Shown piece after piece: positions 7,024 through 49,437 of a stretch of 50,986 nucleotides of DNA. The DNA lies in the NCBI GenBank assembly GCA_001724245.1, contig MEDX01000021.1:1-50986 (forward strand), written 5' to 3'. Numbering within the stretch: position 1 is the stretch's first letter; the number at the start of each line of letters is the position of its first letter. The stretch is from Fonticula-like sp. SCN 57-25 (Eukaryota). Under the pieces are notes generated by a model. The model made no database searches. It was given only the letters and a program-made list of their open reading frames with translations, and was not told where the DNA came from. The translations under genes and the position numbers were made by a program.

Positions 7024-7255
7024 GGTGAGCGTGGTCGAAGTCAGCCTGCACACGACACTATCAAGTGCCCCACTATTTCACGCGAATGTGCAATGTTGGG
7101 GTTCAGCGTGGTCCCCCCCTCGGCAGCACAGAGGGGTGTGCCAAACACAACACCATGCAAACCGTAGTGCAAACTTGGGCTGCAGCCAATCATGATTGAG
7201 AATCGCCGCACACCCGCCGCCATTACTCAAACACCGCGGCTGCCGACGGCCATCC

Positions 7256-8674
7256 ATGACGACCGCCGCCGATGAGGGCCGATCGGCTCGCTTCTACCTA
7301 TGGCGCCGCGTGGCAGTCGCCCTTCTCCTGCTCGGGTACCTTACGTACTATTTTAATCGCACGAATCTGTCCGTGACATCGAAAGCGATCATGGAGGATC
7401 TCGGCTTTAACGAGACCGAAATGGGCGTGATTGTGAGCGTTGGCTACGCCGTGTACGCCGTAGGCAAGTTTGTGACCGGCACGTGGGTCGAGCGCCTTGG
7501 CGGTCGCAACAGCTTCCTGCTCGGCCTCGGCATCTCGTCCCTCCTGACTATCGGCATGTCTTTCTGCAAGACTGTCCCCGCCTTCACTGCGGTGTGGTCA
7601 ATCAGCCGCTTTGCGCAGAGCATTGGCTGGGGCGCGCTTGTGCGGATCTGCTCGTGCTGGTTTGAGAGCAAGTCGTACGGCCGCGTGATGGGCATGATGT
7701 CTCTTTCGTACATGCTGGGCGACGCGCTGATCCGCCTCACGCTCGGCGTGCTTCAGAACGCCGGCCTCTCGTGGGAAGAGGTGTTTTACGTTTGCGCATC
7801 GCTGGGCATTGCCGTGGTGATCCCGAGCATCTTTTTGCTCAAGCAGTCTCCTCTTTTGATTGGCGAGTCAGAGCCGCACTCTTCCGAAAAGAACGTGTAC
7901 GGCGAGGAGACCAAGCAGGAGGAGGAGCGCGTGCTGACCCTTCGCGAGCTGATGGTGCCGCTGCTCAAGACGCCCAAGTTTTACATCCTTCTCGTCCTGT
8001 CCATCGTTCTGACGCTGATCCGCGAGACGTTCAACTCGTGGACGCCGATTTACCTGAGCGACGTCCTTGGGCTGTCGGACGGCGACGCCTCGATGGCCTC
8101 GATGGTGTTCCCCTTTTTCGGCACCATCTCGGCGCTCATCGGCGGCTGGCTCGTCGACCGCGTGCGCCCGCGCTGGCGTGGCGGCGTCTCCGTGTGCTTT
8201 CTGCTGCTGCTCACGGGCGCGCTCATCGGCCTCGCGTGGTTCTCGGACCGCTTCCCGGCGACAGACCCTCTCGCGCTCCCCATCGCGCTCACGCTCATTA
8301 GCCTGATCGGCCTCTTCCTGATGGCGCCCTACTCGTTCCTCGACGGCATCTACACGCTCGAGCTCGGCGGCAAGCACGGCTGCGCCGCCACGGCGTCCAT
8401 CATCAACGGCGCGGGCTACCTCGGCGCCACGTTCAGCGGCTTTGTGCTCGCCATGACCGACAGCGGGTCCGGCTGGGGCCCCGTGTTCCTGCTGCTCGCG
8501 CTGCTCACCGTCGCGTCCATGCTCGCCTTCATCCTCTTTTGGTACATTGACGTGCGCGACATCAACAGGACAGAGATGCGGCACAGCCAGGGCGACTGGC
8601 AGCAGCTCATCAACTCTGTTGACGACGACAACGACGAGCTGCCAGGCGCCGCGGGTGATCGCGAAGACGCCTGA
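7256..8674 (+). CDS. MFS organophosphate:Pi antiporter (GlpT/UhpC/SLC37 family), intronless
   Basis: GYLTYYFNRTNLS, YAVGKFVTG and FAQSIGW...WFESKSYGRVMG; about 12 hydrophobic segments. Confidence 0.85.
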   Translation: MTTAADEGRSARFYLWRRVAVALLLLGYLTYYFNRTNLSVTSKAIMEDLGFNETEMGVIVSVGYAVYAVGKFVTGTWVERLGGRNSFLLGLGISSLLTIGMSFCKTVPAFTAVWSISRFAQSIGWGALVRICSCWFESKSYGRVMGMMSLSYMLGDALIRLTLGVLQNAGLSWEEVFYVCASLGIAVVIPSIFLLKQSPLLIGESEPHSSEKNVYGEETKQEEERVLTLRELMVPLLKTPKFYILLVLSIVLTLIRETFNSWTPIYLSDVLGLSDGDASMASMVFPFFGTISALIGGWLVDRVRPRWRGGVSVCFLLLLTGALIGLAWFSDRFPATDPLALPIALTLISLIGLFLMAPYSFLDGIYTLELGGKHGCAATASIINGAGYLGATFSGFVLAMTDSGSGWGPVFLLLALLTVASMLAFILFWYIDVRDINRTEMRHSQGDWQQLINSVDDDNDELPGAAGDREDA

Positions 8675-8785: not shown

Positions 8786-11700
8786 TTAGATCTTGCCGCG
8801 GAACTTGTGCTTTTCACTGTACTCTGCGTGCAGCCCCTTGAAGAATACCTTTCCGGCCGGCGTCTGCGACACGAGCAGCTGCTGCAGCGCGTGCTCATTG
8901 CAGATATCCATGATGGCAAACACGCCGTCGACGAGCACGCGCTTGGCGTCGGTCGAGAGGCGCATGTGCTCGAGCAGCCGCACATAGTCGCCCAAAATGT
9001 TGATTGCGTACTTGTCGATGCGCTTCTTGTGCGTCGCGACGGCCTGCACGAGACGCGCCGCGTCCTCCAGGCACGACCGCGGCAGCGCAGCACCGGCAAT
9101 CCACGCATATGCCTGCGCACCAAAAGCTCCGCCCACACGGCCCTGAGCATGGCACAGCACAAGCGCTAACAAGATTTGGTCAGCACGAAAAAAAAAAACT
9201 GGGAGAAAAGGCGTACAGCGGACGCAGTCAATGTAGAGGGTCGCATTGTTGACGACGGCGGCGTCATGCCGCCTGCAAAGCGTCAAAAGAAGCGCGTAGA
9301 TTGCGTCATGAAGCGCCGCGGCGTCCTCTGCCGACGCTGCCGACGCGCCCGGGACGAGCGCGAGCGCGCCGATCGCCTGCAGCGTCACACCAACCTCGAG
9401 GCTCGTGAGGCGCTCGCACGGCTCACCATAGACAATGTTGGCCATCGAGAGCACCTTGGCCGCCTCGGCAGCGCCGGACGACCGGCCGACAGCGGCGGCA
9501 ATCAGCGACGACAGCGTGCCGGAAAAGGCGATGACGAGCGGCCGCACGGCAGGGCTCGTCCCGCGAAGCAGCGCGTCCAGCAAAAGTGCGCATGAAGAGG
9601 CGCGGCGGGGAAGCTCGCGGACCCACTGGCTCGTCTCGCGGCATACATGAACAAGCTGGTCGCGCGAGCACGACTTTACAAGAGCATTGAAAACCGCGCG
9701 CGATTCTTCTGTATATTAAAGAGTTAGCGATAAGGAAAGACGAAAAAAAGCAGAAGTTGTTGCACAAAAAGCATAAAAACACAAAACAACAAAATGTTTT
9801 AAAACAGACTCGTACCGTGGAGATCTGAGCGCGATTCGGTAACAAAAATGGCGACCGCGAGGACGGCGTCGACGACCGGCAGCGGCAACTGCCACGCACC
9901 TGAGAACTGGCTGACGAGGCGGGCGGCCTTGATGGCGAGCGCCGGGTCACTTGCCGCCGTCCGCAGCAGCGCCAGCAGCATGCCGAGGTGCTCACGTGCA
10001 CCCGCCATTGGCGCACCGTCAAACGCGCCCGTCAGGCGCCCCTGCTGCTCAGCGTGGCGAAGCTGAAGGCACGCGTCGGCCCTGTCGAGGTCCGCGTGGT
10101 CAGACAACGACGCAAAGGCGGCAGCGTCGATGGCGCGGATGCGCTTGCCGACCGACTTGCCGACCGACAGCGCGGGCTTGCCAGCCGTACGGCGATCCCA
10201 AAGGCCCTCGGCGACGCCGCGAAGCGCGGCAACGGCCGCAGAGCCGCCAAGAGCCGCCTTGACAAGGTCCTCGTCGCCGGTCACGGCGGCCGCGCGCGCG
10301 GCGAGCTGGACGGCCCGGTCGCCCGCAGCGCCCTCGGCAGCGAGACGCGCGGTGCTTCCAACGTGGCCGCTGGCAGTGGCCGCCTGGAGTGCGCGTTCGA
10401 CGAGCGTCCGCCAGGCGTCGGTGATGCGCGGCTCGACGCCCGACGCGTCGCGCTCGAGCAGCGCGTCGGCGTCTTCTGAGGTAATGTATCCGTCGGGTAG
10501 GCGCGCGGCGGCCGCCAGCACGCGAGAAAGCGAGCCCTCGCGGTCTTTCTTCTTTGAGAGTGCCTCGGTAGCCGCAGGCATGAACTGGGTACGCAAGGGC
10601 GCCAGCTCGAGCAGCGGAGCGGCGCGGAAAAAGGAGCGCGCGGCGACGCCCCACGCGTCATCAAGGAGAACGTCGCGGAGTAGTGTCCGCCACACGGCGA
10701 GCGCAATCTCGGCGGCTTGCTCCGACGGCACGAGCAGCAGCACGGGGAGGTATTCAATCACGATTTGCCAGAGCTCGGCGTCGCCGCCGCTCGCAACGGA
10801 AGCATTGACTGCAGCAAGTGACGCGCGCGCGACCAGCTCGGTCGGCAGCACCACGCTCTCGATGGCGGCGCCGTGGAGCGCCACGAGCAGCGCCCGCAGC
10901 GCAGCGCCGTTGAGTGCGTGGCCGTCCTCGCGGCCCTCTATCAAGTCGACGAGCGCGGTGACCGTAGCTGCATTGAAAAAGGCGGCCGCACGGTGCGACC
11001 AGGCGCGGCAGAGAAGCAGGTGAGCGTCGAGCGCCGCCTCGGACCACGCGTCGTCGACGAGCCGCGCAACGTCGGAGACCGTCTCGAGCTCGCGAAAGGC
11101 CGTCACGGCGGCGTCCACCTGGGCCCGCGACTCGGACGGGAACTGCGCCCGGACGAGCACGGCGTGCAGCAGGCGAGTCAATTGGCGAAGCGCACTCGCC
11201 GCCGACGGGTCAGCGGCCGCTTCCGCAGAAACGTTCGTCTTGCGCTTCTTCTTTGCCGGCGTAGTCGACGACGACTCGCCCCTCTTGAACGCAGAGTCCA
11301 TCGCCTCCAAAAGCACCTTGAGAAGGACGACGCTCTGCGCGGGCAGGGCGGCGCAGACGGCCGCCGTGAGCGCCTCGAGCGTCGCCGGGGCCACCGCGAC
11401 GACGGCCGCGTCAGCCTCGATGATCGCCTCGACGAGCACGCTGACGGGCCGCTCGAGCAGATTGAGTCGCGCATACGTCCGCAGGATGCGCGACTGGAGC
11501 CCCGCAGCCTCGGCGGTCGGCGGCGCGCGCCAGATCTGCGGCAGGAACGGCTGCACGAGGTCATAGTCGAGCGGAAGGATCGCCTCGAGGCAAGTGAGCG
11601 TCGCCGCCGCCACGTCGTCGCTCGAGCCGGGCGACAGGAGCTGACCAATCTTTGTCGCAAGGTCGCGCAGCACGGCAAGCTGCGCCAGCGACTGCGCGTC

Positions 11701-12759
11701 GTTAGCCACGTGGAAAACTTCCTTGTCGCTCAGCAGCGCAAAGACGGCCGTCGCAGAGGCGAGCTCGGGGACGCCCCAGCGCGACGCGTCGCCGGCAAGC
11801 GAAAGCATCTCGCGCGCAAAGTCAAAGCAGGAGCTGTTGCGCTGCTCGAGGTTGCGGCCCACGCGGGCGCCCGTTGTCGCAGAAAGCGAAACGGCCGCCG
11901 CACGGCTGCGGTCCGTCTGGAGAATAAACATGGAGAGGAGCTGCGGGAGAGCGTGAAAGGCGGCAGTGCGGCGGCCGTCTTTCGCCGACAAAAGGGTGGA
12001 AAGTTCATCGAAAAGCTGCTTGGGGTAGCTCGCCGCGCTCGCCGCCGCGCTTCGGCTGAACGAGTACGCGTTCGAAAACTCGCTCAGGTGATCGCGCGAA
12101 AAGAGGGCGCGCGAAAGAAGAAAAGTGGCCGCCTTTGCAATGTTGTCGTGCAGAGAGCCAGGTGCGCGGCTGGCTGTCTCCATGGCGCGCACGAGCGGCC
12201 AAAGGAGCTTGGAGCACACCGTGCTAAAGATCTTGCGCGGGTTGCCCTGCTGCAGGGCGACGGCCGCGAGATGATCCACAGCCGCTTCGGCAAACATCAG
12301 CAGCTCGGGCAAAGCAGCCTCGCCTTCCGCGTCCACCGCGTCCAGCACCTGCGTGGTGAATGCGACGGATTGCTCCAGCGTCGGGCGGAACAGGCGGCCG
12401 TACGCGCCGGTGAGCAGCCGGAACACGGCAAGAGCTTCGCCGATCACATCGTTATCGCGCGACAAAACAGCACCGGCCGTGGGCTGAAGTAGAAAAAAAC
12501 GAATAGGGCGGGAAAGGAGCTCATCGGACCGAACGTCCAGGATTTCCTTGGCGAGCCGCCATGGGCCGCGCTCGCGAGCAAAGGTCGTCCGATCGCTCGA
12601 GAACTTTACAAGCGTACCGGCGAGCCATTCAAAGAGAGCAACCGCTTTCCCCGGGAAACGGTCTGCCGGTATCGTCCGCCACGCGTTTTCGGCCGCGTCG
12701 ACCTTGGCGCTGAGGCTCAGCGCTGTGCCGCGCAAGTCCCGCAGCACCGCATGCGCCAT
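8786..12759 (-). CDS. URB2: Nucleolar pre-ribosomal protein Urb2/Npa2-like, 3 exons
   Basis: Large helical protein; C-terminal Urb2-type segment LVDGVFAIMDICNEHALQQL...FKGLHAEYSEKHKFRGKI*; N-terminal GKAVALFEWL motif. Introns near 9166-9216 and 9709-9815. Confidence 0.75.
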
Positions 12760-12959
12760 CAGCCCTCCACGCTGTCGCTGCTGACACAGTCCACGTGGCC
12801 AAGATCTTACTGAACTGGATCGATGTTTCACTTGGGTCAATCAGCACGACGCTCGACACCGCACTATAGAAAAACTGTACAATGTGCCGGTAAAAGCACA
12901 ATAGCAATGATGCGACGATATACACGTATATTTAAAAGAGGGATGATGTACAAAAATGT

Positions 12960-15900
12960 CTAATTCAGGGCATGCGTAATTGCCGCGAGGCGGTCGAGTG
13001 CTCCCGTGCGGTCGTTGCTGGCCGCAAACGCGAGGATTGCCTGCGCGCAGCGCGTGTGCAGGGCGCGAAGCTCGTCCAGGTCGTACGATGCGGTCCCTTT
13101 TGCGAGCGCGTCCAGGGTCAGCTCCCAGCGGGCGCGGTCGATAATGAAGGGCATCTCCTTTGGGGCCGGCGGCGTCGCGGGCTCCTCGGCGGGCGTCGTC
13201 TCCTCGGCGGCGGCGGTCGCGGCCGTCTGCTCGTCGTCGTCCGCCATCGGCTGGTCGTCATCGGCGTCGGCTTCCTCCTCGTCCTGCTCCTCGGCGTCGA
13301 CCTCCATAGCATCCTCGCCACGTGGCGCGATTTCCTCGTCCTCTTCGGACTCTTCCTTCTCATCTTCAGATGCAGAGTCAGAAGCAACAGCATTGGCATC
13401 GTCTTCCTTTTCTTCTTCTTCTTCCTTTTCTTCGTCATCCTCTTCTGCTACCTCTTCTGCTTCTTCTTCTTCCTTCTCTTCATCATCGTCTTCTGCCTCT
13501 TTTTCTTCTTCATCCTTCTCGTCTTCCTCGTTCTCTTCCTCTTCCTTCTCCTCCTTGTCTTCCTCGTCCACTTCCTTATCGTTCCCGTCCCCTTCCTTCT
13601 CTACCTTATCCTCCTCTTCCGCTCCCTTTACGATCTTCTTGGCCGTCTTACGCCTCGCGTCCAGCTCGGCCGGGACTTCATCCACGCGGTCGGGCATCTC
13701 GCCACGCAGCCTGCGGCTATGCCGCGGGCCCAAGTTCTTCTCGGGCGATGCCTCGCGCTTGCGACGCGCCGCGAGGGCCATGCACCGCGAAAGGAGGTCG
13801 GGTTCGATGAGCTTGGAGACCATCTGCGTCGCAATGTCCTTCATGGCACGCGCGCGGTTGACGATGCGCTCGGGGTCGTGGCGCGGGTTGAACTCGCGCG
13901 CGTTCGACAGGATGAGGTCAATGTCGGCGAGATACTCGTCAGGCAGCGAATAAACGCCCTCGTCAATCCTAAAAAACAGCGGAAAAGTAGAAATTTGTCA
14001 GTTTCACCCTTAACAGTCACTTTAGCCAACGCACTTTGACATCATTGTCGTGAGGTCCATGGGATGCTCGATGATCTCGTAATAGTCGGGCAGCACCTCC
14101 GGGTCGACCGGCTTGTGGAATGGCGCAAACTTGCGAACCTTGAGCAGCTCGTCGGTGGCGATGCGCAAGTCAATGCGCAGCTCGCGCAGCGTGTCCTCGT
14201 CGGCGCGCTCGCGCGCGCGGCGCTCTTCGGCCGACACGCGCGGCTTGGGCAGCGCCGGCGCCTTCGGCAGCGGCGGCGGCGGGACCTTGACGATCTCGAT
14301 GAGGGTTTCGCTGCCGTCGTCGGCGAGCTTAAAGCCGGCCGGCGGGCGGAACAGCAACGCCGACAGCGACTCAAAGAACGCGCGGCGGGCATCGACGCCC
14401 GGCGGTGACGCGGTGACGCGCGCGGCCATCGAGCGGCCTGAAAAGAGACGCTCGGTGACCTCGCAGGCGCCGGTGGTCTCTGACGTGGCGAGAAGCAGCA
14501 CGCGCTCCTCGGCCGGAAGCGTCTCAAAGGCGTCGACGAGCGCACTGACGACGGCGTCGGGCGCCGTCGCGGCCCATCTGTCAATGTGCGGAAGGTATGC
14601 GATGGCCGGCTGGCGCTTGCTGAGCTCGCGGAGCAGCGCAAGTGCGGTCGCGTCGGCGCCGCGCAGCCCGTCCGCGGCGAGCAGCGAAGACATGTCAAAG
14701 CTCTGGATAAACAGCGACGTGAACGAGTGCAGCACAGCGGCGCCAATGTCGGCGGCGCCGGGGCCCTGGACCAGCAGCCGCGGGCGGAAAACGCTAAAGG
14801 GCTTGTCCTGCAGCAGAGACGTCGCGCCGTCACCGGACCACTCGTCCTCGCGGCGCAGCAGCGACTCGAGCGTTACAAACTCGGTCGTCTCGGGGGCGCG
14901 GCCGCCGGCGGGCGCGGTGCGCTCGGCGATCATGAGCTTTTCGAGGACGGCAGCGGACCCCGCGGCGACGGCGTCCTTTAGCAGCGGCGCCATCAGCAGC
15001 GGGAGCGGGCGACCCGGGTGCTCGGCGCTGCGCCGCGACGACGGCGTGATGCCGCGCAGTGCCTCGGCAAAGTCGTCGCGGCGCACGCGGATCTGGTCGG
15101 GGTGGATGAGCAGCCGCTCGGACGACTCGTAGATCTGCGGGTAGTGCCGCTTGACCGCCTTGAGCGCCGCGTCGGTGCAGAGCGCGCGGATGTCGGCGCC
15201 GCCAAAACCCTTCGTCGCCTCGGCAAGCTCCGCCTTGAAGCCGTCCTCGAGCGGCGGCGACCACTTTGACGTGTGGATGTCAATGATGGAACGGCGCGCG
15301 ACCGCGTCCGGCAGCGAAAAGAAAAACTCGCGGTCAAAGCGGCCCGGGCGGCGCAGCGCGGGGTCGATCGCGTCAATGCGGTTCGTCGCGCCAATGACAA
15401 TCACCTGGCCGCGGCTATCGAGGCCGTCCATGAGCGCAAGGAGCGTCGACACGATCGACGAGTGGACCTGCTCTTGTTTGGACGACCGCACGGGCGCCAG
15501 GCCGTCAATCTCGTCGAAAAAGATGATGGATGGCTGCATCGCCTGCGCCTGCTCAAACAGGAGTCGCAGCTGGCGCTCCGCCTCGCCGACCCACTTGCTC
15601 AGGCAGTCGGCGCCCTTTCGCATAAAAAAGGAGATTTGGCGGGGTGCGCCGCCGACGCCGGGTACGCCAATCGTCGCAGAGTTGGCGAGCGCGCGCGCCA
15701 TGAGCGTCTTGCCCGTTCCGGGCGGGCCGTGGAAGAGCACGCCACGCGGCGGCGCAACGTCAAAGCGCGTAAACACTTCGGGATACAGCAGCGGTAGCAG
15801 TACCATTTCCTTTAGAATTGCAATATGGTGATTGAGGCCGCCGATCGACTCAAAGGTGGTCTGCGCGACAACGTTGAGCGGGTCCACGTCGGCGCGCGAG

Positions 15901-17081
15901 CTGCTGCCTAGCGGTAGGTGAGCATCGCCGCCCATGTTCAACGGCTGAATGGCGTGGCGCGACCCGCCCGACGACGACATCGGGCCGCCCTTGCGCCGGT
16001 CATAGTGCTTCTCATCGTCGCTTGAATCGTCAAAGCGATTCGCCTTGCGCGGCGACGACAGAATCGCGCTGAGCGACCGCTCGCTGATCCTGCGGTCAGG
16101 GAAACGCTGGCGGTGGCGGTCCATCTCCGCCTCGGACGGAAAGATGGTGGCGTAGTTGACCGACCGGCGCGGCCGCAGCGAGTAGCGGTCGGCGTCATTG
16201 TCGGGAGATGCGGCCCGCGAGCGCCGGCTGCTGCTGTCCTTTCGCGAGCTCGAACGCGACCGGCTCGACTTTTGGCGCGACTGGCGGCTCTCGTGGCGGT
16301 GCTGCCGCTCGCTGGACGCGTGCGACCGCCGAGCGGGCAGAGTGTCGCCGTTGTCGTTGTAGTTGATGGCGCGGCGCTGGCGAAGACCCTCGCGCGTCGT
16401 CGGGGTGTAGATGGGCACCTCTTCTTCGTGCTCTTCCTCGTAAAACACAGGCGGCGGGGGGCGGCGCTCGCGCAGCTGCCGCGTCGTCGCGGGCGTGTGC
16501 ACCCCTTCCTCGGCGTGCTCCGCTTGGTCGGCATCGTGCGCGTCATCGGCAGCGCCGTCATGGTGCGACTCATCGTCGCTCTCCTCGTCCGGCACGACGA
16601 TCCGCCGCCGGCTGCGCAGCGAGCGCGACCCTGACTCGTGCGTTTCCGCCTGCTGCGGCGACACGCTCTCTGTGCGGGCGCGCTTCGACTGCGGCGAATC
16701 CTGCTGCCTCTGTGACCTGCGCCGGGTCAAGGGGTCTTCGTCGTCGTGCTGACTGTCATCGTCTTCGTCGCTGCTCTCGGGATCGACGACGATGGCGCGC
16801 GTCCCACCTCGCGACGGGCGCACGTACATGTCAACCGGTGCAGACCGGCGCGACCGAGACGACGAGTGGCGCATCGGCTGGAAGTCGTCCTCTGAAAAGT
16901 CGTCGTCGTCCTCGGCAAGCACCGGGCGCTTGTCCCGCGACCGAAGCGACCGCGACGACTGCGACGACTCGCGGGACGGCGACTTTGTCGGCGACTGCGA
17001 CATTTGTTTGGCAAACAGCGCGCTCGCAATCTTGCGAGCCGACCTGGCAGCGGACGGGCTCGACTGGCCCCCGCTTCCCAT
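12960..17081 (-). CDS. ATAD2: AAA+ ATPase with bromodomain (ATAD2/Yta7), 2 exons
   Basis: GVLFHGPPGTGKT, FFMRKGADCLSKWVGEAERQLRLLF, IIFFDEIDGLAPVRS and ALRRPGRFDRE; bromodomain FHKPVDPEVLPDYYEIIEHPMDL split by an intron near 13968-14034. Confidence 0.95.
13330..13640 (-). repeat. Glu/Asp/Lys-rich low-complexity coding repeat within ATAD2
   Basis: (TCT/TCC/TCA)n on the + strand; the peptide contains two copies of AE(D/E)DDEEKEEEE. Confidence 0.8.
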
Positions 17082-17127
17082 GGCCGATCGACGCTGCGCG
17101 ACTCGAAGCTCGAGCGAAGCGGAACTT

Positions 17128-17146
17128 TTTCGCGCGCAATTTTGAA
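17128..17146. promoter_or_regulatory. E2F/CDE plus CHR element in the ATAD2/VPS51 bidirectional promoter
   Basis: TTTCGCGC(G) at 17128-17136, a 4-nt spacer CAAT, then TTTGAA at 17141-17146. Confidence 0.6.
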
Positions 17147-17254
17147 TCGCATGCGTAATCGCACCCTTGGACCTGATTTCGCCCTGGCTTTCTTATTCCT
17201 GCCTGATTGTTCTGATCTGGAGCTGGGATCGAGAGAGCGAGCCGACAACAAACC

Positions 17255-20106: not shown

Positions 20107-20575
20107 TTAAAAGAGCCCGCTCATTGTAATTGGGTCGTCGCGCTTGACACCCAGCCGCATGTCCTTGTCGAGCTTGAAAATTGTGCTCCGGATCATGCGC
20201 TCGTCAATCTTGAGCACGCGCGCCACCTCGGAGGCGACCGCAGGCCGCGCATCAAAGTGCATCAGGTAATAGCTGGAGGTAGACGATTAGAAATAAAAGA
20301 GTCCACAAGCAAGTCGTACCGGCCCTGCGTATAAAAATTCATGTGCGACTTCATGCGGTACGGGAGCGTGCGGACGCCCATGTGCTCAATCTTGCGCACG
20401 ACACCTCCATTGTCGAGCACCACAAAGGCGGCCTTCTTGCAAATGTCCGCCACCTCCGACTACCAAAACAAATTACAAAACAACAGCGTTCAGTATCCAA
20501 CAAATTCCGAAGACAAGCCGCCCGCACCATCGCCATCCTTGGCCGGACAATCGAAATCATCTCGTAGAGCACCAT
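20107..20575 (-). CDS. MRPS6: Mitochondrial ribosomal protein bS6m, 3 exons
   Basis: MVLYEMISIVRP...VLDNGGVVRKIEHMGVRTLPYRM...GRYYLMHFDARP...LKIDERMIRSTIFK. Confidence 0.9.
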
Positions 20576-20657
20576 GTTTGCGGGCGGTCCGGGTACGAGC
20601 TCGGTTCAAACGTGTTACGGCCACGTGCACACTGTGATCTTTTATGGTTGTTTCTCG

Positions 20658-21687
20658 ATGAATGCCGCAGTCAAAGTTGTGATGGGCCCGGCCACGCTGC
20701 TCGAGGGGGAGCTCGAGGGGCTGTCGCTCTCGGAGCGCCTGCCGGGCGAGGTTGTGTACACTCTGCTGCAGTTCCTGGACGTGCAGGACCTCGGCCGCCT
20801 GGCGCAGACATGCACTGAGCTGCGAGACATCGTCTACGCGTCCGACTGCTGGGAATCGCTCTGCGTCGACCGCTTCGGGTCGATCCTGATGTTGCAGTCG
20901 CTGGTGGAGGAGGCCGGCATCCCGCTGCCCGCCGCTCGGCAGCCGCCGTCCAACTGGCGCAACGAATACATGAGGCGCTTGGAACAGCCGCCGGTAGATC
21001 TCGATCATATCGCGGCAATGTACGATGACGCGCAGAGCAGGCTGCAGGACAATGCCGTGTCGACGCCCGAGCAGTTCACAGAGATCGCGCAGATCCTCCT
21101 GTCGATCCTCGGTACGTCCAACGCAATCTGCGCGCGTTTGCTCACGACCGGGCGCTGTAGACGCTTTCCCCGAGCACTACCCTTCGTACTACACGCTCGG
21201 CCACGTGTGCTTTGTGCTGAACGCTTATGACGCCGCCGAGCAGCTTGTTGAGCTGGCGCTCGAGCTGGCACCCGGTGCGCCCGAGTGCGTCGAGCTGCTC
21301 GCGAGCATCCAGCGCGTGCAGCGTGCCATTGACGGCGTTGAGGAGGGCGACCAGCCGCTGCTCGACGACCACGACGAGCTGAGCGAGCCGCTGCGCCGCG
21401 TGCTCGGCGAGATCTTTACGAAATACGACGCTGACAAGGACGGCGCGCTGAACCGCCGCGAGCTGTCGAGCCTCATCGAGCGGACGAACGGCGTTGCGCC
21501 GGCGCCGCAGCTGCTCGCGGCGCTGACGCGCAGCTTTGCGTCAACGCGCGCAGGGGCACTCAAGCTGGAAGGCTTCCTCGCATTCTACCTCGCACAGACG
21601 CAAGGCGACCCGGAGGAAACCATCAGCGACCTCGCCAAGCACGGCTACAACCGCCAGCTCAAGCTCGAGCTTGCGGGGTCTTCATAG
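20658..21687 (+). CDS. F-box + TPR + EF-hand protein, 2 exons
   Basis: F-box LPGEVVYTLLQFLDVQDLGRLAQTC...WESLC; TPR-like YYTLGHVCFVLNAYDAAEQLVELALELAP; EF loop DADKDGALNRRE. Confidence 0.8.
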
Positions 21688-21891: not shown

Positions 21892-23877
21892 CTACTCTGG
21901 CATGTCGGCCATGACAGAGAGCTTCGTCAGGCAGATCGGGCACTGCGGCTTTTGTATGAGCCACGGGTCGATGCACGACGTATGGAATATGTGAAAGCAC
22001 GGCAGCGTGCGCACTTGCTCGCCCGCCTCGTACTGGTAGCGGCACACCTGGCACTCATTGACGCCGTTGCGCTTCTCCTGCATGCTCACCTTGTACTGCG
22101 TCACTGGCAGCAGCCCTATATGCACAGGTCCAACTACAAAATTGTGAGCAAAAACAAGTCATCTGCTTTGCGCGCGTACGCTCGGTCCTGCGCGCCAGGT
22201 CGCCCTTGAGGTCCTCTGACGCCTGCCGAATGTCACGTGTGGCCTCGACAAAGAGCTCGTGCTGCAGCATGCGCGCGAGCTCATAGTCTGACGTAATCTG
22301 GTCCTCTTCGCTGAGGTTCACCGCCGCGGGCTCGTCGTCGCTCCAGTGCTCCATGTCGGCCGCCGCGTCGTCTTTCCTCTCGACATCAGCGCCGCTCACG
22401 TCCTGCGCCGACGAGTCTGCCACCCTGCGCACCAATGTTAGCGCCGCCGTCGGCATCAAAAGAGTGCATTTCGTACTCTCGCGACGCGTCCTCGTCTTCC
22501 TCCTCGAGCAGGATCAGCCGCTGCAGGTCGCTCAGTGTCCGCATGGACGACCCGAGCTCGAGCGACAGGCGCTCCAGCTGCATCGACAGCGACCGCTGGC
22601 GCGTGAGCGACCCGAGCTGCGGCGAGGCGGCGACGTCCGGCGGCACGGCGGAGGCGGCGGCCTGCGACGCGCTCGGGATCGGAATGCTCGACGACGCCGT
22701 CGTGGGGCTCGCGATCGGGGTCGGGGGCTGCGAGTCGGGCGTGGGCAGCGAGCGGTAACCGAAGCGCAGACCAAAGCCCGCGTTATAGCGCTCGTCTATG
22801 CTCGCCTTGTCGATAAGGCCCTTGCCGACCGTCAGCGTCTCTTTTGTCGCGTCCATGAACGCTGTGCGGAAATTAAGTAACCGCAGCAATTATAAAAAAT
22901 ACGCACCGCTATTCATGTAGTGCGCAAACATGAGCTTGGGCGGCCCCTGCGACCGCCGGTGGTAAAACTTGCACAAAAAGTCGCCCGAGACGCGCGTGCC
23001 GCGCAGGTCAAACGTAACGTCGACGACGTCAGATAGAATAGTCCGCGGCGCGCGCTCGGTGATGAGCGAGTTGAAGATCACTTCGTTGTTCTGGACAATC
23101 ATGACAAAGGCGCGGACGGTCGTCGGCATCAGATGAACGTTGGGCGGGACAGGCTCGCTGAAAATGTGCGTCAGCACTCAATATTAAAAGAATAAAAAGA
23201 TATAAACGTACTTTTTCGGCAGGATGACGCGCCCGTACTTGGGGATGGTGAGGAGCGTCACCGAGTGGAGCTCGACCGGCGAGCACAGTGCCGAGAGTCC
23301 CTGCACGTCGAGCCGCTTCCTGAAGCGGTCAAAGTTTTGCAGAAAGCCGTACTCTGACGGGAGCGGGTTCTTGCCCGGCGTGAGGACGCGCACGCGCTTA
23401 ATTGCGCACAGCCTCACAAACTGCTTGGCCACGAGGTCAAAGGACGAGTACTGCGGGTCGCACTCGAGAAGCACGCACGACGCCAGCATCGGGCACTCCT
23501 CGCTCGCCATGTGAAGCACGGCGACCGCAGTCGGCGAGCTCTGCAGCCACGACCGCAGCGGGCTAATATACACGTCAGAGAAAATTAATGTTGGGGATCG
23601 CGGCGTACCGGCACACCGTCACGATGCCCTCGAGCGTGCGGCCTTCGAGAGACACGTGGATCGCGCTCGGGATCCCGGGCAGCACGCAGGGAGAGTTCAC
23701 CTGAACGACCATAATAGTGTCGCTTTCGTGGTTTGCGTGAAGCACGCCGACCAGCTTTTGGGCATCACGCGGGGAGCTGTTGCTAGGAAGCGTGCACAGG
23801 ATGATGCGGCTGCTCAGGTAGGTCAGGTGTTGATGGCGACGGCGGCCCGTCGGCCACAAGCGGGAAAGAAGATCCAT
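21892..23877 (-). CDS. PTEN/tensin-like pseudophosphatase + C2 + RING-H2 protein, 6 coding exons
   Basis: LTYLSSRII (compare PTEN LTYI..II), LRSWLQSSPTAVAVLHM, C2 motifs GDFLCKFYH...MFAHYMNSAF...IDKASIDERY, and RING-H2 CQVC...LPCFHIFHTSCIDPWL...CPIC. All five introns preserve frame. Confidence 0.8.
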
Positions 23878-25898: not shown

Positions 25899-28800
25899 TT
25901 ACCAACCGGCGAGGCGGTCGAGCATGGCAATCCACTTGTCGCGCTCGTCATCGGTGGTGGCGTCGAAAAAGTACTCGCGGTTGCTCCTCATGAGGATCTT
26001 GAAGCCGCAGCGCCGCCCGACGGCCGACAGGTCGACCTTTTCGACCTTGACCGCCTGGTCGAGACGGATAATACCGCGAGGCTCCTTGTCCTTCTTGTCC
26101 TGGTAGTAGAGGAGGAAGTGGTTGTTGAGGACGAGGTGGCGCTGCTCCCACTTTTTCGTGTTGCTGCCGCCCTGCTTGTACATGAGCGCGACGGCGGCGC
26201 TTCCGCGCATGGCGGTGGCAAAAGTAAGGTCGCCAAAGAGAAGCTTGACGAGGTCCGCCTCCTTGGGGAACTTTTCGTACACGTGGCGGAGCTGCATCTG
26301 AGCCTCCTGGCAGCGGTACGCAACCTCGATGAGCTGCTGGCGCTCGGCCTCGAGCAGGTTCAGCTTCTTGGTCAGCTCGGCGTTGCGCGCCACGAGCGAC
26401 TTCATGTCCGACGCCTGCGCGTGGATCGTGATGGCAGAGTTGGCCACCTCGCGCTCGAGGCGCGAAATGTTGTCCGTCGTAATGTTGGACACCTCCGACA
26501 GGCGGTGCTCCAGGTTGCGGCGCTCAATCATGATGCTGTCAATCACGGCCTGCTTGTTGTACGCGGCCGCGGCGGCCTGCGAGCGCACCTCCTGAATCTC
26601 CTCGCCCATGCGGCGCACCTCGTCAGCGTGCTGCGCCTCAGAGTCCGCAAGGCGCGCGCGGAGCATGCCGGCGCCGCGCATCTCCTCGCTAAGGCGCGCC
26701 TCCAGAACGGCGATGCGCTCAAACAGAGCAGACATGCGCGACTCGGCAGCCTCGAGCTGGCCTTGCGCCTGGCCAAGGTCCGTGCGGGCAGCAGCGTGCG
26801 CGCGACGCTCCTCGGCAAGCTGCGCCTCCACCTCGGCCTTTTGCGACGTGAGGCGGTTCAGAGCAGTGTTGCTCGAAGCCTGGGCCTCGGCGACGCGCTT
26901 CTCGGCAGCGATGCGGCCCTCGTTCTCGACGCGGATCGCAGCCTTGAGCTGGTTGATGCGGGCCTCAATCTCGCTGCGCATGCGGGCAACGTCGTCGCGC
27001 ATCGTGCGCTGTGCCGTGGCGGCGGCCTCGCGCTCCTTCTCCTGCGACGCCTTTTCGGCCGCGAGCGCCTCCTCGAGGTGCGCGCGGCGCGTCTCGGCGG
27101 CGCTGCGCGCCTCGCTCACGTCGCGCAGCTTGTTCTCGAGCTCGCCCTTTTCGGCGAGCGCCACGTGAAGATCCTTGAGGAGCGTGGTCGAGTCGCTCTC
27201 GGACGCCTTCTTGAGTGCGTTGATCTCGGTCACCTTTGACGCGCGCAGCTCCTCAATGTGGACGTTGAGGCTCTGGACGGCCGCCTTTTGGACGGCGAGC
27301 TCGGACGAGGCGTCCGACACGACCTTGGCCTGCGCAGCGAGCGTCGAGCGCGACTCGGCGAGCTGCGTCTCGGTGGCCTGGCGGGCGGTGGCCTCGGCCG
27401 TGAGGCGCTCCTGAAGGCTAGCCTTCTCGGCCTCGAGGGCGCGCGACGCCTCCTCGACGCGCTGCAGACGCGCCTCCAGCTCGGTGGTGTGCGCGGCAAC
27501 CTGCTCCTTGGCCTCGGTCATCTGGAGCAGTGACTCCTTAAGCTGGTTCGCGGCGAGCTTGAGCTCGTCGACCTGCTGCGAGTGGAGCAGGCGCTCCTCC
27601 TCGTCGCGGCGGCGCTTCTCCTCCTTGGCAATGCGGCGCTCCTCCTGCTGGCGCGCAAGCTGCGCCTCCTGCTCGGCCTTGAGCACGCGCTCCTGCTCGA
27701 GACGCTCTGCCTCGAGACGCTTCTCCTCCTGCTCGCGCAGCAGCTCCTCCTCGCGGCGCTTGCGCAGGATCTCGTCGCTGTACAGGCGGCGGCGCACGGT
27801 CTTGAGAAGGCCCTTCCAGATGCGCACGTAGCGCACAAAGAAGCGCGCGGTCCTACGGAAGCGGCGCACGAGGCGCACGCTCTCGATGCGTTTGCCGAGG
27901 CGGCCGATCGAGCGAACCGCGTGGATGGCAGCGCGGAAGCGCTTGCGCGCCAGCCAGCTCATGACCTTGGCCACAATGTGGTGCGAGGTCGCGGCGTCGT
28001 CACCCATCAGCTCGTCCATGAGCGAAAGCTTGCCGGCGCGGAAAAAGACCTTGGACAGGCCCGACTGGAAGTCCTCACCGCCGTGCAGGTCGAGCGCCAC
28101 GAGGAGCGCCTCGCAAAACTGGTTCGGCGCGAGGCTCGCCACCTTGGCGGGCATCCTGTCCTTGTAGCGCGCATAGAGCTCGTCAAAGGAGACGCGAGTG
28201 GGGAAGCCCTGCTGCATGAGCTGCAGCGCGGTGCACATGCCGCTGTAGCGCAGCTGCTGCATCACGCTGACGCTCTCAAAGACGCCGGCCGTCTGCACGC
28301 CGTTGGGCTTGATGCAGCGGATAAAGTGCGACTGGGTCTTCTCGAGCTGCTCGAGCAGCGCAGCGAGCTGCTTCTGGAACTTGCTGCCGACGCTCTTGAA
28401 GCGACCGCCCGAGACGAGCGCCTTGCAGTCGTCCTTGTTGATCTCCTCCTCCTTGGCAAACACGCCGCGCAAAAAGGCCGACGCCGAGCCGCTGAGCAGC
28501 TTGATGAGGTCCTCGTGCAGCGTGTCGTTGTTCTTGGCCAAAAAGTTCTTCACCTCGTACAGCACGTCACCGGCAAAGTGCTTCACCACAAAGGCGTCGT
28601 TCTCGTTCACGCGCTTCTTGGTCTTGCCGGGCTTGGGCTTTTCGAGCGCAGGGTTGCCGGCGTGCATCGTGTGCAGCTTGACGGCAAAGGTCTTGTCGCT
28701 CGACTGGGGCATGAGGCACTCCTCATCGAGGAGCGAAAGCACGCCGTTGCGGCGGTTCTCGACAAGGTCGATGATGCCGACGTTGTCCTCATAGTCAATC

Positions 28801-30450
28801 TTGCGCCAGCGAAGGCCCTCGAGCTCGTAAATGTCCTGCTCCTGCTTGAGGATCTGCTGGTTAAAGTACTGCTGGATCTTTTCGTTCGAGTAGTTGATGC
28901 AAAACTGCTCAAACGAGTTGGTCTCAAAGATCTCAAATCCAGAGATGTCGAGGACGCCGATCGAGTTGGCCGCCGAGGTCACCGGGATCGACTTGTTGAT
29001 CGTGAGGACGAGCCAGTCAAAGAGCGCCGCGTAAATGTACTTGGCGAGCGAGTCGCGGACCGTGGCCGCCTCGGCCACCTTGAGCGGGATGCTGTACGTC
29101 TCCTGGCGGTTGCCCGCGACCATGGTGCGCGTCACGAGGCCCTCGCTGAGCGCGTTCACCGGCAGCGAAAAGAGCTGCGAGGCGAGCTGGACCTTGGCGG
29201 CCGACTCGGGCGCGACGGTGCAGCGCTCGCCGTCAGAGTCGGTGACCGGCACAAAGGTCACGTCGCCGAGGTGAAGCAGCGCCGCGAGCGTCTGGAAGAT
29301 GTTGTTGCGCGTCGCCTCGTCGATGCCGAGCGACTCGAACGCCTTGATGACGACGTTGAACTCGGCGGCGTCGTTGACGTTGTCGATGCGCGTGCAGTTG
29401 CCCTGGTTCAGGAACGCGTGCTGCTCGGGGCCCTGCAAAAAGTACGTGTTGCGCTGCGCGGGCGTGCTGCCGGCCAGCAGCTGGTAAAAGATGTGGAAGC
29501 TACGCTCGCCGGCGGCCTGCGACACAAGGCGCGACTTTTCGAGCAGGTACGACTCGATGCGGGCGCCAGACATGCGCCACGAATTGTCAAACGTAATGTC
29601 GGTGAACTTGCCGAAACGCGACGAGTTGTTGTTGCGCGTCGTCTTGGCGTTACCAAAGGCCTCGAGAATTGGGTTCGCCTTAAGGATGCGCTCCTGGATC
29701 GAGTCGGTGGACGCACCCGCGCCCGCACCGCCCACCTTGGCCATGTACCGCATAACATGCTTGCACGTCTCCGTCTTACCGGCGCCCGACTCGCCGCTGT
29801 AGACAAGCGCAACAGACACGTCAGCACGCGGCAGGGACGGCATCAAAAGGAAAGAGCGCACCTGACGACGATCGACTGGTTGCGCTTGTTGCTCTTCATG
29901 CTACGGTAGGCGCGATCGGCGACCGCGTACACGTGCGGCGGAAGCTTGCCGATCGACTTGCCGGTGTACTGGGCAATCTTGTCATCGCCGTAAATGTCGA
30001 CCGCGCGATAAGGGTTGACGGCAATCAGAATGTAGGCGGTGTAGGTATAAATTTCGCCCTATTCCCTTCCCGGTCAGCTGGACTGTTTTCGCGCGTAAAT
30101 GTTTGGGAGATGCCCACGCACCTTTGCGTATCTGATGCGGAGATTGTCGAGCAAGGACGGGTCGTGCAGGAACGTGAGCTCCGTGTTGTCCTGGACGCCG
30201 GCCGTGTTAGTCGCGTCATAGGGGAACACCGAGGCGGCGGCCACGGTCTCCGCCTTGTAGTCCTTGTCAAACACCACCAGCGATCCGTTCGCGCTAACCT
30301 CCTTGACGGTCACGACCTACGTGGCGCCTCGTGAGCGTCGTGGGTAAATATACGTCACCGCCGGCGTACCTTGAAGCATTCCTGCGCGTCAGCGATCCAA
30401 ACGCGGTCCCCCTTGTTAATCGCCGGGGACGAGGCGACGGTGCTCTTCAT
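25899..30450 (-). CDS. Unconventional myosin: myosin-VI-like motor, ER/K helix, coiled coil and C-terminal PH domain, 4 exons
   Basis: GESGAGKT, EAFGNAKTTRNNNSSRFGK, DISGFE and FIRCIKPN; C-terminal MYKQGGSNTKKWEQRHLVL...LLYY...PRGII...EYFFDA...ERDKWIAML. Confidence 0.92.
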
Positions 30451-46730: not shown

Positions 46731-48611
46731 TCAGTCGTCCTTCTTTGCCTCGGCAGCCTTTTCGGCCTTTTTCGCTTTGCGGTTCTTGCGGTACTTTAAA
46801 AACACCGAGATCGACCCAAAGAAAGCGCCCATCGTCATGATGACAGTCATTGCGCTTGCCTTTGCAAGGTACATGAGCATGCTCTCGTTCAAAAACTTGC
46901 TGAGCGGTGCCTCTGGAAAGTCTCCCGGGAGGTTCCTCATGAGGCCTCTCTCGTCGAGGAACGAGTCCCACAGCGGGCAGCGCTCGTAGCTGGGCACAAT
47001 CGGCACGTGGCAAGTCGTACGGTTGCACGAGTTCTCACTCCAGAACGGGTGCACGTACGGGTCGCTTTGCGGCATGAACGGCCGCCACTCGCCGTGGTCC
47101 GGCAGCGACTCGGGCGCACCGCCGCGCGCGAACGAGTGGAACAGTGCCTGGAACTGACGCATGACGTGGCCGTTGAGCGGGTGTTCCGGCTTGGCGTCGC
47201 GGCCCGACCAGATGCCGAGCTCGCTGCCGTGGAAGGAGCCGAGCCCCGAGAACGGCCACGAAAGGCCCTCGGTGCGGTGCGAGTAGTGGTACACAAACAC
47301 TTGGCCGGGGAGGCTCTCGGCGATCGCGTCGGCCGAGCCGCGCGTCAGGCAGTGCCACATTTGCGAGAAAACGTGGCTGGCATAGTCGCGCGCGCTAAGG
47401 AACTTGCGCTCGGCGGCGTTGAGCGCGTGCAGCTGCTCGACGCCCTCTTGGCCAAACATGGCGCCGAGCATCTCGGACACGTGGACGCTGTCGAGGTAGA
47501 TCGGGTAGCCGAGCATGACAAAGATGCTGCCTTCGTCCTCGTTGGCGCCGAGCACGACGCGCACGCTCTCGTCGACGTAGCCGGGCGAGCGGAAGGCGGC
47601 CATCGGGCCGTCGGCGTGCATCAGCGAGTCGTCAATCACGGGGAACCACGTGTAGCCGTCGTAGAAGAGGAGGCCGCGACGCGGCTTGAGGGCCTCGAGC
47701 ACGGCCGACGGCGACGCAGAGCGAAGGCACTCGGCAACTTCGGCGGCGGTTCCGTTCTCGCAGCCAATAGCGTGAGAGAGAAGCGTGCCCTGCGCGTGAC
47801 CTTCCTCGCGCGTCGGGAAGGGGTAGTTGCACAGGACGCTCGACATGATCGCGCGGTGGAAGAGGCCGCGCGAGGCGGGCGTCGAGAGGAGAAGGCAAAT
47901 GGAGAAGGCGCCGGCAGACTCGCCCATGAGCGTCACCTCGCTGGCGTCGCCGTAAAAGTTGCCAATGTGGCGTTGGACCCACTGCAGCGCAGCGCTATAA
48001 CAAAAAGTGTCAGCAAAGAGCAATGTTAACAGGAAAACGCACAGCTGATCACGGATGCCGAGGGCGCCCGACTTGGCGTCCGGGCCGTCGAGCGCGGGGT
48101 GCGCGAGGAAGCCAAAGGGGCCCAGACGGTAGTTAAGCGACACGTACACCAGTCCGGTGGTGTTAACCAGCTGCTCCGGGTTGGGCGAGACCATCTCGTT
48201 GCCGGCCGATCCCAGCACGAAACCGCCGCCGTGTAGCATGACGACGACCGGCTGGCGCGTCGATGCCTCGCGCGCCGAGCGGGGCACCCAGATGTTAAGG
48301 AAGAGGCAGTCCTCGTTGGGCTCCATAATGTCGGGGAGCATCGACTTTCCGGACGGGTAGCATGGCGCGCCAAAGCTGGTCGCGTTGAGCACACCCTCCC
48401 ACGCCAGCGGCGCGGCCGGCCCGCGCCAGCGACGATCGCCGGTCGGAGGCTGCGCGTAGGGGATCCCGCGGAATATCCACGTGCCGTCCTTTGTCTCCAC
48501 TCCGCGAATGGTCCCGAGCGCCGTCGTGACGAGTACGTCGGCGTCGGCGTCGGCCGCCCGCAGCAGGAGCAGGAGCACCAGCGTGCCCGCCACCGCCCGC
48601 AGCGCCGCCAT
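46731..48611 (-). CDS. Type-B carboxylesterase with signal peptide and C-terminal TM anchor, 2 exons
   Basis: FRGIPYAQPP, EDCLFLNIW, HGGGF, NYRLGPFGFL, GESAG, GANEDEG and SFHGSEL (Ser-Glu-His triad). Confidence 0.93.
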   Translation of the reverse strand: MAALRAVAGTLVLLLLLRAADADADVLVTTALGTIRGVETKDGTWIFRGIPYAQPPTGDRRWRGPAAPLAWEGVLNATSFGAPCYPSGKSMLPDIMEPNEDCLFLNIWVPRSAREASTRQPVVVMLHGGGFVLGSAGNEMVSPNPEQLVNTTGLVYVSLNYRLGPFGFLAHPALDGPDAKSGALGIRDQLCVFLLTLLFADTFCYSAALQWVQRHIGNFYGDASEVTLMGESAGAFSICLLLSTPASRGLFHRAIMSSVLCNYPFPTREEGHAQGTLLSHAIGCENGTAAEVAECLRSASPSAVLEALKPRRGLLFYDGYTWFPVIDDSLMHADGPMAAFRSPGYVDESVRVVLGANEDEGSIFVMLGYPIYLDSVHVSEMLGAMFGQEGVEQLHALNAAERKFLSARDYASHVFSQMWHCLTRGSADAIAESLPGQVFVYHYSHRTEGLSWPFSGLGSFHGSELGIWSGRDAKPEHPLNGHVMRQFQALFHSFARGGAPESLPDHGEWRPFMPQSDPYVHPFWSENSCNRTTCHVPIVPSYERCPLWDSFLDERGLMRNLPGDFPEAPLSKFLNESMLMYLAKASAMTVIMTMGAFFGSISVFLKYRKNRKAKKAEKAAEAKKDD

Positions 48612-48698
48612 GATTGCTGACCAATGAAAACTACTTTGGCGCACAGCAGTGTGGCAGGCCTGCGGATCTGCGACGGCGGGATGTGATTGGCCAACGAG

Positions 48699-48792
48699 CG
48701 TGGCAGGTTCTGATTGGGCCACCTGTCTTTTTGCAAAAAGGGCCCTCTGGTGTGGTTCCACGTAGGCACGAAGAACCTTTCCAGAAAGTTCT
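48699..48792. promoter_or_regulatory. BiP promoter: ERSE, UPRE-like site and HSE
   Basis: CGTGG-caggttctg-ATTGG at 48699-48717 (reverse of CCAAT-N9-CCACG); CCACGTA at 48758-48764; tTTCcaGAAagTTCt at 48778-48792. Confidence 0.7.
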
Positions 48793-48877
48793 ACTCTTTT
48801 TCCTCGGCATAGTTTTTATAGGCCGCGTCTGCCCGTCACCCGCACACTCGCGTCTTTACCTGTTGTCAGCTTTGGCG

Positions 48878-49406
48878 ATGGCTCGTGGAGCGTTGTTCAT
48901 TGCCGCGGCGGCCCTCCTCCTGGTGGGGCTCGCCGGCGTGCATGCGACCGAGGAGAAGCTTGAGAATGTTATCGGTATCGATCTTGGAACCACCTACTCG
49001 TGCGTCGGCATCTTCCGTGGCGGCCGCGTCGAGATCATCCCCAACGACCAGGGCAACCGCATCACTCCGTCGGTTGTCGCCTTCACCGACGATAGCGAGC
49101 GCCTTATCGGCGACTCGGCCAAGAACCAGGCTGCCATGAACCCCGAGCGCACCGTCTATGATGCCAAGCGCCTTATCGGCCGCCGCTTCACCGAGAAGGA
49201 TGTGCAGAACGACATGAAGAACTGGCCTTTCAAGGTTGTCAGCAAGGACGGCAAGCCCGCCATTAGCGTGGAGGTGTCCGGCAAGCCGGTCGTCTTTGTC
49301 CCCGAGGAGATCTCGGGCATGGTCCTGCTCAAGATGAAGGAGATCGCCGAGACTTACCTTGACAAGGAAGTTAAGCACGCTGTCGTCACCGTGCCCGCCT
49401 ACTTCA

Positions 49407-49437
<31 letters not shown>

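Follow-up and report, generated by a model that had tools for sequence, protein, structure and literature searches.

Several kinds of protein carry a PTEN-like module. As described in PMC7054993, the module of auxilin (DNAJC6) and GAK lacks phosphatase activity and recognises the head groups of phosphoinositides, setting where and when the protein is recruited; an inactive PTEN-like phosphatase and a C2 domain make up a targeting unit, and behind it come an extended disordered linker and, at the C-terminus, a small effector. PMC2386819 presents the PTEN domain as a versatile building block that has independently entered several contexts, including in stramenopiles, and in the plant class II formins of that account the localisation of FH2 is ascribed, tentatively, to a PTEN-like domain that has become eroded. 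Here we analyse a stretch of 50,986 nucleotides (nt) from Fonticula-like sp. SCN 57-25 (contig MEDX01000021.1 of assembly GCA_001724245.1), termed the window. Its minus strand carries a gene at 23877–21892 that we read, on balance and together with the mechanism proposed below, as encoding one protein of 580 residues in which a PTEN-type module is connected by a linker to a C-terminal RING-H2 domain. From its sequence, this is probably a new arrangement of known domains, a PTEN-type C2 module plus a C-terminal RING.

The gene shares with auxilin and GAK the general plan of targeting unit, linker and small C-terminal effector. Instead of a RING, their effector is a clathrin-binding region with an Hsc70-recruiting J domain, and the Pfam C2 profile apart they have no detectable sequence similarity to the gene. 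Class II formins of plants, like the PTEN-domain formins of stramenopiles, likewise place on an unrelated effector a PTEN-related domain whose catalytic site is eroded, as set out in PMC2386819. That effector is FH1–FH2, which functions in actin nucleation, and the module of the present gene is much more divergent. PTEN, TPTE/VSP and the tensins have in common with it the Pfam family PTEN_C2 and an N-terminal basic patch ahead of what we take, by resemblance, to be the LTY..II motif. They differ in that the gene has HMASEECP for HCxxGxxR, matches no phosphatase-family profile and ends in a RING, where they have a tail for PDZ binding, a voltage sensor or SH2-PTB domains. The complete C3H2C3 RING at the extreme C-terminus resembles that of the C-terminal RING-H2 E3 ligases (zf-RING_2), and the helix lying ~55 residues upstream of the RING is presumably a further likeness; those families are not known to have a PTEN-type module. 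The NEDD4-family C2-HECT ligases also use a lipid-binding C2 domain to put a ubiquitin ligase on membranes, but theirs is of the Ca2+/phospholipid type rather than the PTEN type, and the chemistry of ligation is that of a HECT thioester, not of a RING scaffold.

No description of a protein with both PTEN_C2 and a RING was found in the literature, domain tables in supplements lying outside the scope of the search. The papers that name both Pfam families appear to be surveys of plant NLRs (proteins with a nucleotide-binding part and leucine-rich repeats).

Gene structure

The DNA of the window is eukaryotic, with 60% G+C and abundant short introns. The reading frame starts with an ATG at 23877–23875 and finishes with a stop codon at 21894–21892. 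Six exons join in frame, as had been proposed in a first-pass annotation made from the letters of the DNA, giving a stop-free spliced frame of 1743 nt or 580 codons. The elements of the gene are as follows.

23609..23877, minus strand: exon 1, residues 1–89 and two further bases; includes the basic patch GRRRHQH at the N-terminus and half (the first) of a putative domain with PTEN-like phosphatase fold
23563..23608, minus strand: intron 1, 46 nt; GTACGC ... CTGAC ... TAG
23212..23562, minus strand: exon 2, residues 91–206; completes the putative phosphatase-like domain with its second half and begins C2
23490..23513, minus strand: HMASEECP, at the place where the PTEN-type HCxxGxxR loop would be expected, judged by eye against PTEN
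23158..23211, minus strand: intron 2, 54 nt; in frame, carrying TAA and TGA
22907..23157, minus strand: exon 3, residues 208–290; core of the PTEN-type C2
22862..22906, minus strand: intron 3, 45 nt; in frame, carrying TAA
22761..23153, minus strand: span of the Pfam PTEN_C2 match, starting in exon 3, passing through intron 3 and reaching exon 4
22477..22861, minus strand: exon 4, residues 292–418; end of C2, Ser/Pro/Ala-rich linker and a predicted helical stretch, LERLSLEL...LQRLILLEEEDED
22425..22476, minus strand: intron 4, 52 nt; GTACGA ... GCTAAC ... CAG
22180..22424, minus strand: exon 5, residues 420–500; an acidic stretch, then the SDYELARMLQHE helix (22291–22262)
22410, minus strand: C in the window and A in metagenome contig L001; TCG to TAG in the frame of exon 5, GTC to GTA (synonymous) in frame A, that of exon 4
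22386..22388, minus strand: frame-A TGA, which would end the PTEN-like/C2 frame if intron 4 were retained
22134..22179, minus strand: intron 5, 46 nt; GTACGC ... CTCAC ... TAG
21892..22133, minus strand: exon 6, residues 502–580 and stop; RING-H2 at 22053–21931

All five introns start with GT[AG]CG, have a CTRAY-type branch sequence 11–13 nt before the 3′ end, and end with YAG. The log-likelihood of coding versus noncoding sequence is positive for every exon, ranging from +18.8 to +93.8 bits (exon 1, +25.6; exon 2, +67.7; exon 4, +93.8), and is strongly negative for all plus-strand frames across the span of the gene.

A strict intron pattern (GT[AG]CG, then YTRAY, then YAG, with no more than 66 nt in all) matches the window 46 times on the two strands, with elements of 43–65 nt. 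The introns of this organism thus seem very uniform in length and signals, and a simple intron finder seems workable for the genome. Two overlapping matches lie within exon 2 (23478–23421, minus strand). Both are coding-like (+22.9 and +16.8 bits) and their removal breaks the frame, so the strict pattern does arise by chance in coding sequence.

The RING-H2 and PTEN-type C2 domains

The last exon encodes a complete RING-H2 domain. Exon 6 matches Pfam zf-RING_2 (PF13639) with 52.3 bits (E 7e-14, against a cut-off of 27.3), over positions 1–43 of the 44 in the profile. In the spliced model the domain covers residues 528–568 as CQVC-x14-CFH-x2-H-x2-C-x10-CPIC. Its eight metal ligands fit C-x2-C-x(9-39)-C-x(1-3)-H-x(2-3)-H-x2-C-x(4-48)-C-x2-C with canonical spacing, and the complete C3H2C3 RING of the first-pass annotation is therefore upheld by both the profile and the full set of ligands.

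Exon 3 alone gives 16.3 bits (E 0.0084) against Pfam PTEN_C2 (PF10409), under the curated cut-off. Introns 2 and 3 each have a length divisible by three, and exons 2–4 thus share a single genomic frame. These exons were therefore also searched as one query, in which both in-frame introns were translated along with them, each of the three stops was written as X and the intron-encoded residues were retained. The read-through matches PTEN_C2 over profile positions 15–129 of 133 with E 3.9e-6 and 27.1 bits; this equals the curated cut-off of 27.1 and is a borderline pass, reached despite 15 inserted intron-encoded residues. The C2 assignment, first made by eye, is thereby placed on an independent footing. 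The continuation of the match from exon 3 into exon 4 also supports the predicted junction between these exons.

The linker and the helix ahead of the RING

Residues 326–500 form a linker with 25 S, 12 P, 22 A and 35 D+E among its 175 residues. The region described earlier as a Pro/Ser linker is thus rich in Ser, Pro and Ala as well as in acidic residues. The SDYELARMLQ sequence noted at the same time is encoded at 22291–22262. A helix with D-hydrophobic-x-L-A-x-x-L-Q is reportedly the core of the motif interacting with ubiquitin (MIU), or inverted ubiquitin-interacting motif (UIM), of Penengo et al. 2006. By eye DYELARMLQ would fit this core, and it would equally resemble the helix that precedes the RING (YEELLxL-type) in ligases such as Arkadia and RNF38. 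The MIU helix binds ubiquitin and occurs in Rabex-5 and RNF168. The linker also contains RQRSLS at ~22590–22573 (minus strand), translated as residues 377–382. This presumably fits RxRxxS, the consensus for Akt and other AGC kinases, and may be a regulatory site in a PTEN-like protein. The existence of MIU motifs is supported by PMC2699339 and PMC11520951.

The phosphatase-like N-terminal half

The region ahead of C2 was described in the first-pass annotation as a PTEN/tensin phosphatase fold in which the active-site loop is replaced by HMASEECP. The translation has HMASEECP at 23513–23490, and it lacks both the Cys and the Arg of HCxxGxxR. The dipeptide HC occurs nowhere in the 580-residue model, which hence contains no HCxxGxxR catalytic loop. 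Strings of the form CX5R are found at C142 (CAIKRVR, residues 142–148) and at C269, both without the His and the Gly. The module would thus be at most a pseudophosphatase member of the PTEN/tensin type of phosphatase domain.

We regard the pseudophosphatase assignment of the N-terminal half as rather likely, since in the described families known to us (PTEN, tensin, auxilin/GAK, TPTE and class II formins) PTEN_C2 is always preceded by a phosphatase-fold domain. Exon 1 points the same way in a language-model search of the ESM Atlas (recognition value 2776). Its ten best named clusters are all cysteine-phosphatase families, with scores of 0.79–0.82, which as scores below 0.9 are leads only. The three best of these (0.81–0.82) carry the tensin-type family Tc-R-P (PF22785) in 44%, 12% and 66% of their members. 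By eye against PTEN, we also take HMASEECP to lie at the place of the P-loop, and LTY..II..P, a strand-His before the loop and PSE.Y to follow in the PTEN order.

A number of results tell against this assignment, and the fold itself, claimed for residues 1–185, was not borne out by profile, structure database or model. Exons 1 and 2, being in different frames, were queried separately, and neither matched any Pfam family at E ≤10; nor did either as a single exon match Tc-R-P, for which the whole spliced domain is the stronger test. Among PDB sequences exon 2 had no match and the sole match of exon 1 was a 6-phosphogluconolactonase at E 0.26. Exon 3 too had no PDB match, and the read-through of exons 2–4 gave low-complexity SPT6 matches only (E 0.99). 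An AlphaFold2 model of the 280-residue read-through, made without an alignment, has a mean predicted local distance difference test (pLDDT) score of 33.4 and a predicted template modelling (pTM) score of 0.24 and is unusable as to fold. Exon 2 drew no match of note in the ESM Atlas (recognition 1384, best score 0.79), and the formal CX5R at C142 leaves the inactivity of the domain unproven.

These results could mean that only the C2 and RING are real domains, and that residues 1–185 adopt some other fold or form no stable domain. The missing Pfam and PDB matches, the poor return of exon 2 from the Atlas and the pLDDT of 33 would all be expected were this so, but the clear coding signal of both exons, the uniform run of cysteine-phosphatase families with tensin-type first for exon 1, the order, judged by eye, of the several PTEN motifs and the rule that PTEN_C2 follows a phosphatase fold argue the other way, and we think it unlikely. 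That the protein might instead be an active phosphatase with its catalytic loop displaced to C142 has in its favour the CX5R string at residues 142–148. Yet the Cys has no His before it and the loop no Gly, and the string lies ~45 residues before the start of C2, where a helix is expected from a by-eye comparison with PTEN; the low-confidence AlphaFold2 model also has a helix there. This we consider scarcely credible, and the pseudophosphatase remains the favoured assignment.

One gene or two

Fusion of the PTEN-like/C2 part to the RING depends on intron 4, because its retention lets frame A run on to the TGA at 22388–22386. This TGA is the stop at 22386 that had earlier been named as a gene end, should transcripts show two separate genes. 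The frame of exon 5 is termed frame B. Intron 4 matches the other introns of the gene in donor, branch sequence, branch-to-acceptor distance (13 nt) and acceptor. There are 28 choices of GT..AG that leave the six-exon frame open, and the strict pattern finds only 22476–22425 in the junction zone. That pattern has no sense-strand match in 14,667 nt of long open reading frames and one false locus, that of exon 2. From this false-hit rate the chance of such an intron arising in the 128-nt zone in the right phase is estimated at about three in a thousand.

Frame-B coding begins at the intron 4 acceptor, and the coding statistics switch frame exactly there. The number of codons with G or C in the third position (GC3) in frame A is 26 of 29 for the last codons of exon 4 before the donor, as against 17 of 29 from donor to stop (10 of 17 within intron 4), and it is 19 of 23 in frame B from the acceptor on. 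The 23 frame-B codons at 22423–22355, upstream of the first Met of exon 5, score +19.7 bits, which exceeds every one of 432 off-frame windows (the highest at 8.1) and of 83 flank windows (the highest at 1.1). For frame B the stretch immediately upstream of the acceptor (22456–22424) comes to –4.6 bits. For frame A the last 12 codons come to –1.2 bits, and 4.8% of true in-frame windows are as low. By composition the likelihood of an intron followed by frame B exceeds that of frame A to its stop followed by noncoding sequence by 19.5 bits.

Two other arrangements of the junction were rejected. The ATG of frame B at 22456 is discounted as the start of a RING gene by the score of –4.6 bits over 22456–22424. 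An alternative intron at 22432–22372 has an AAG acceptor preceded by two earlier AGs, and would remove 17 codons of good frame-B signal.

A metagenome scan gave one locus, contig L001, which corresponds to 24093–22318 of the window (1776 nt) and is 99.83% identical, with three mismatches and no gaps; judged on this identity it is from the same organism. As L001 is gapless over the change of frame between exons 4 and 5, an assembly indel is ruled out as its cause. One of the mismatches is the change at 22410, which creates a stop at codon 424 in the frame of exon 5. The coverage of L001 is ~3, taken from the contig name, so that the change may be an error. On the strand of the gene two of the three differences are C-to-A or G-to-T. 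Such changes are typical of oxidative sequencing artefacts at low coverage.

We consider a single fused frame, running from the PTEN-like/C2 part through the RING, to be likely, and in the fusion claimed by the first-pass annotation the C2 and the RING held up and the joining of the frames is favoured, while the phosphatase fold was not confirmed. Several observations speak against the fusion. RNA support was found for no junction: a run whose kind is only guessed as RNA yielded a single 188-nt contig (21822–22009, with no differences from the window), and it contains no splice joint. Read in frame A, intron 4 is unusually coding-like when compared with off-frame codons (+16.5 bits); among the other 45 matches to the intron pattern a score of at least 16 bits is reached only by the two coding overlaps in exon 2, and by none of the remaining 43. 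Against a noncoding model its score is an ambiguous +1.8 bits. The change in L001, giving a stop in exon 5, has the pattern that would be expected were frame A coding at this point. Finally, no homologue of the PTEN-like part was found, so that conservation of the fusion cannot be shown.

Some of these points would be accommodated by two products, a PTEN-like/C2 protein of 448 residues ending at the TGA and a separate RING-H2 protein of ~134 residues starting from the ATG at 22354. Exons 1–4 do form a complete open reading frame to 22388–22386, the coding-like character of intron 4 and the change at 22410 (synonymous in frame A, stop in frame B) would follow, and G occupies both –3 and +4 around the ATG at 22354. 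But the stop and the ATG are separated by just 31 nt, placing a second promoter and 5′ end inside the first gene; the +19.7 bits of the 23 codons ahead of that ATG would go unexplained, frame A weakens from the donor on (17 of 29 codons by GC3, –1.2 bits over its last 12 codons), and the presence of a canonical, correctly phased intron would be down to chance. Two products are thus improbable. It might also be supposed that what we have is a decaying or functionless orphan restricted to one lineage, which in one strain or more has already lost its RING part to a stop, as the TAG at codon 424 in L001 and the failure to find a homologue in any collection searched would suggest. Against this, in the window all six exons are still open and use codons in the manner of coding sequence, the RING retains each of its eight ligands, and the C-to-A change comes from a contig of ~3-fold coverage and would be of a common artefactual kind; we judge decay very unlikely. 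If the stop in L001 is real, that strain would be without the fused product.

Homologues

Searches of the protein collections, which reach eukaryotic proteomes poorly, provided no relatives. Compared with longer proteins, exon 2 gave 213 candidates, the C2 region 333 and the RING exon 2, none of which scored. A phmmer search with exon 2 against 1.84 billion representative proteins returned only a 101-residue fragment from the window itself. In prokaryote genomes the RING exon matched two bacterial stretches (36% over 42 residues and 48% over 23), which were taken as chance. The gene would accordingly appear to be an orphan, and its sequence suggests domain shuffling around a portable membrane-address module.

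Neighbouring genes

The convergent neighbour of the gene lies at 20568–21687 (plus strand) and ends 204 nt from the stop of the RING gene. It comprises two overlapping frames, F-box-like (E 5e-8) and then TPR with a pair of EF-hands (E 1.6e-5), which are probably one intron-joined gene of unusual combination. Other frames noted in the window are as follows.

7196–8674, plus strand: MFS transporter, E 4e-40
9799–12840, minus strand: frame of 1013 codons, with no Pfam family
14022–17192, minus strand: frame of 1056 codons with AAA ATPase, AAA lid and the start of a bromodomain, which we take to be an ATAD2/Yta7-like arrangement
25899–29900, minus strand: frame of 1333 codons encoding a myosin head (E 1.9e-197) and, at the C-terminus, a PH domain (E 6e-17)
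46731–48815, minus strand: carboxylesterase, E 3e-87
48614–50836, plus strand: Hsp70, E 5e-254

Discussion

The predicted protein would have three parts. A domain of ~185 residues, probably with a cysteine-phosphatase fold lacking the Cys and Arg of HCxxGxxR, would pack on the PTEN-type C2 domain. A linker of ~175 residues, disordered, Ser/Pro/Ala-rich and acidic and containing the SDYELARMLQHE helix, would lead to the RING-H2 at the C-terminus. What we infer here is a phosphatase-like but inactive fold, binding to lipid, E3 activity and a role for the helix. By analogy with auxilin/GAK and the plant class II formins, the dead PTEN-C2 module may read acidic lipids or phosphoinositide head groups and so anchor the protein to a membrane. 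Contact with the lipid might be made by the RRR patch (residues 12–14) and a basic loop of C2, HRRSQGPPK. The RING-H2 would recruit a ubiquitin-charged ubiquitin-conjugating enzyme (E2) and ubiquitinate proteins of that membrane, with the helix ahead of it either binding ubiquitin or supporting the RING.

More tentatively, the protein could be a ligase that uses a dead PTEN phosphatase-C2 lipid reader to find its substrates, coupling phosphoinositide identity to ubiquitination by a RING, an architecture that would be absent from the described E3 families. On this tentative scheme retention of intron 4 would produce an isoform without the RING, ending at 22386, which could compete for the same membrane sites.

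The value of the finding is bounded by its resting on an orphan gene with a predicted transcript, and on a lipid specificity and E3 activity that we infer. Should the fusion be real and active, the RING would be a fourth kind of effector carried by a dead PTEN-C2 module, after the J domain, FH2 and SH2-PTB, and this would support PTEN-C2 as a portable membrane-address unit. The gene would then also offer, in compact form, a case from nature in which ubiquitination by a RING ligase is lipid-addressed.

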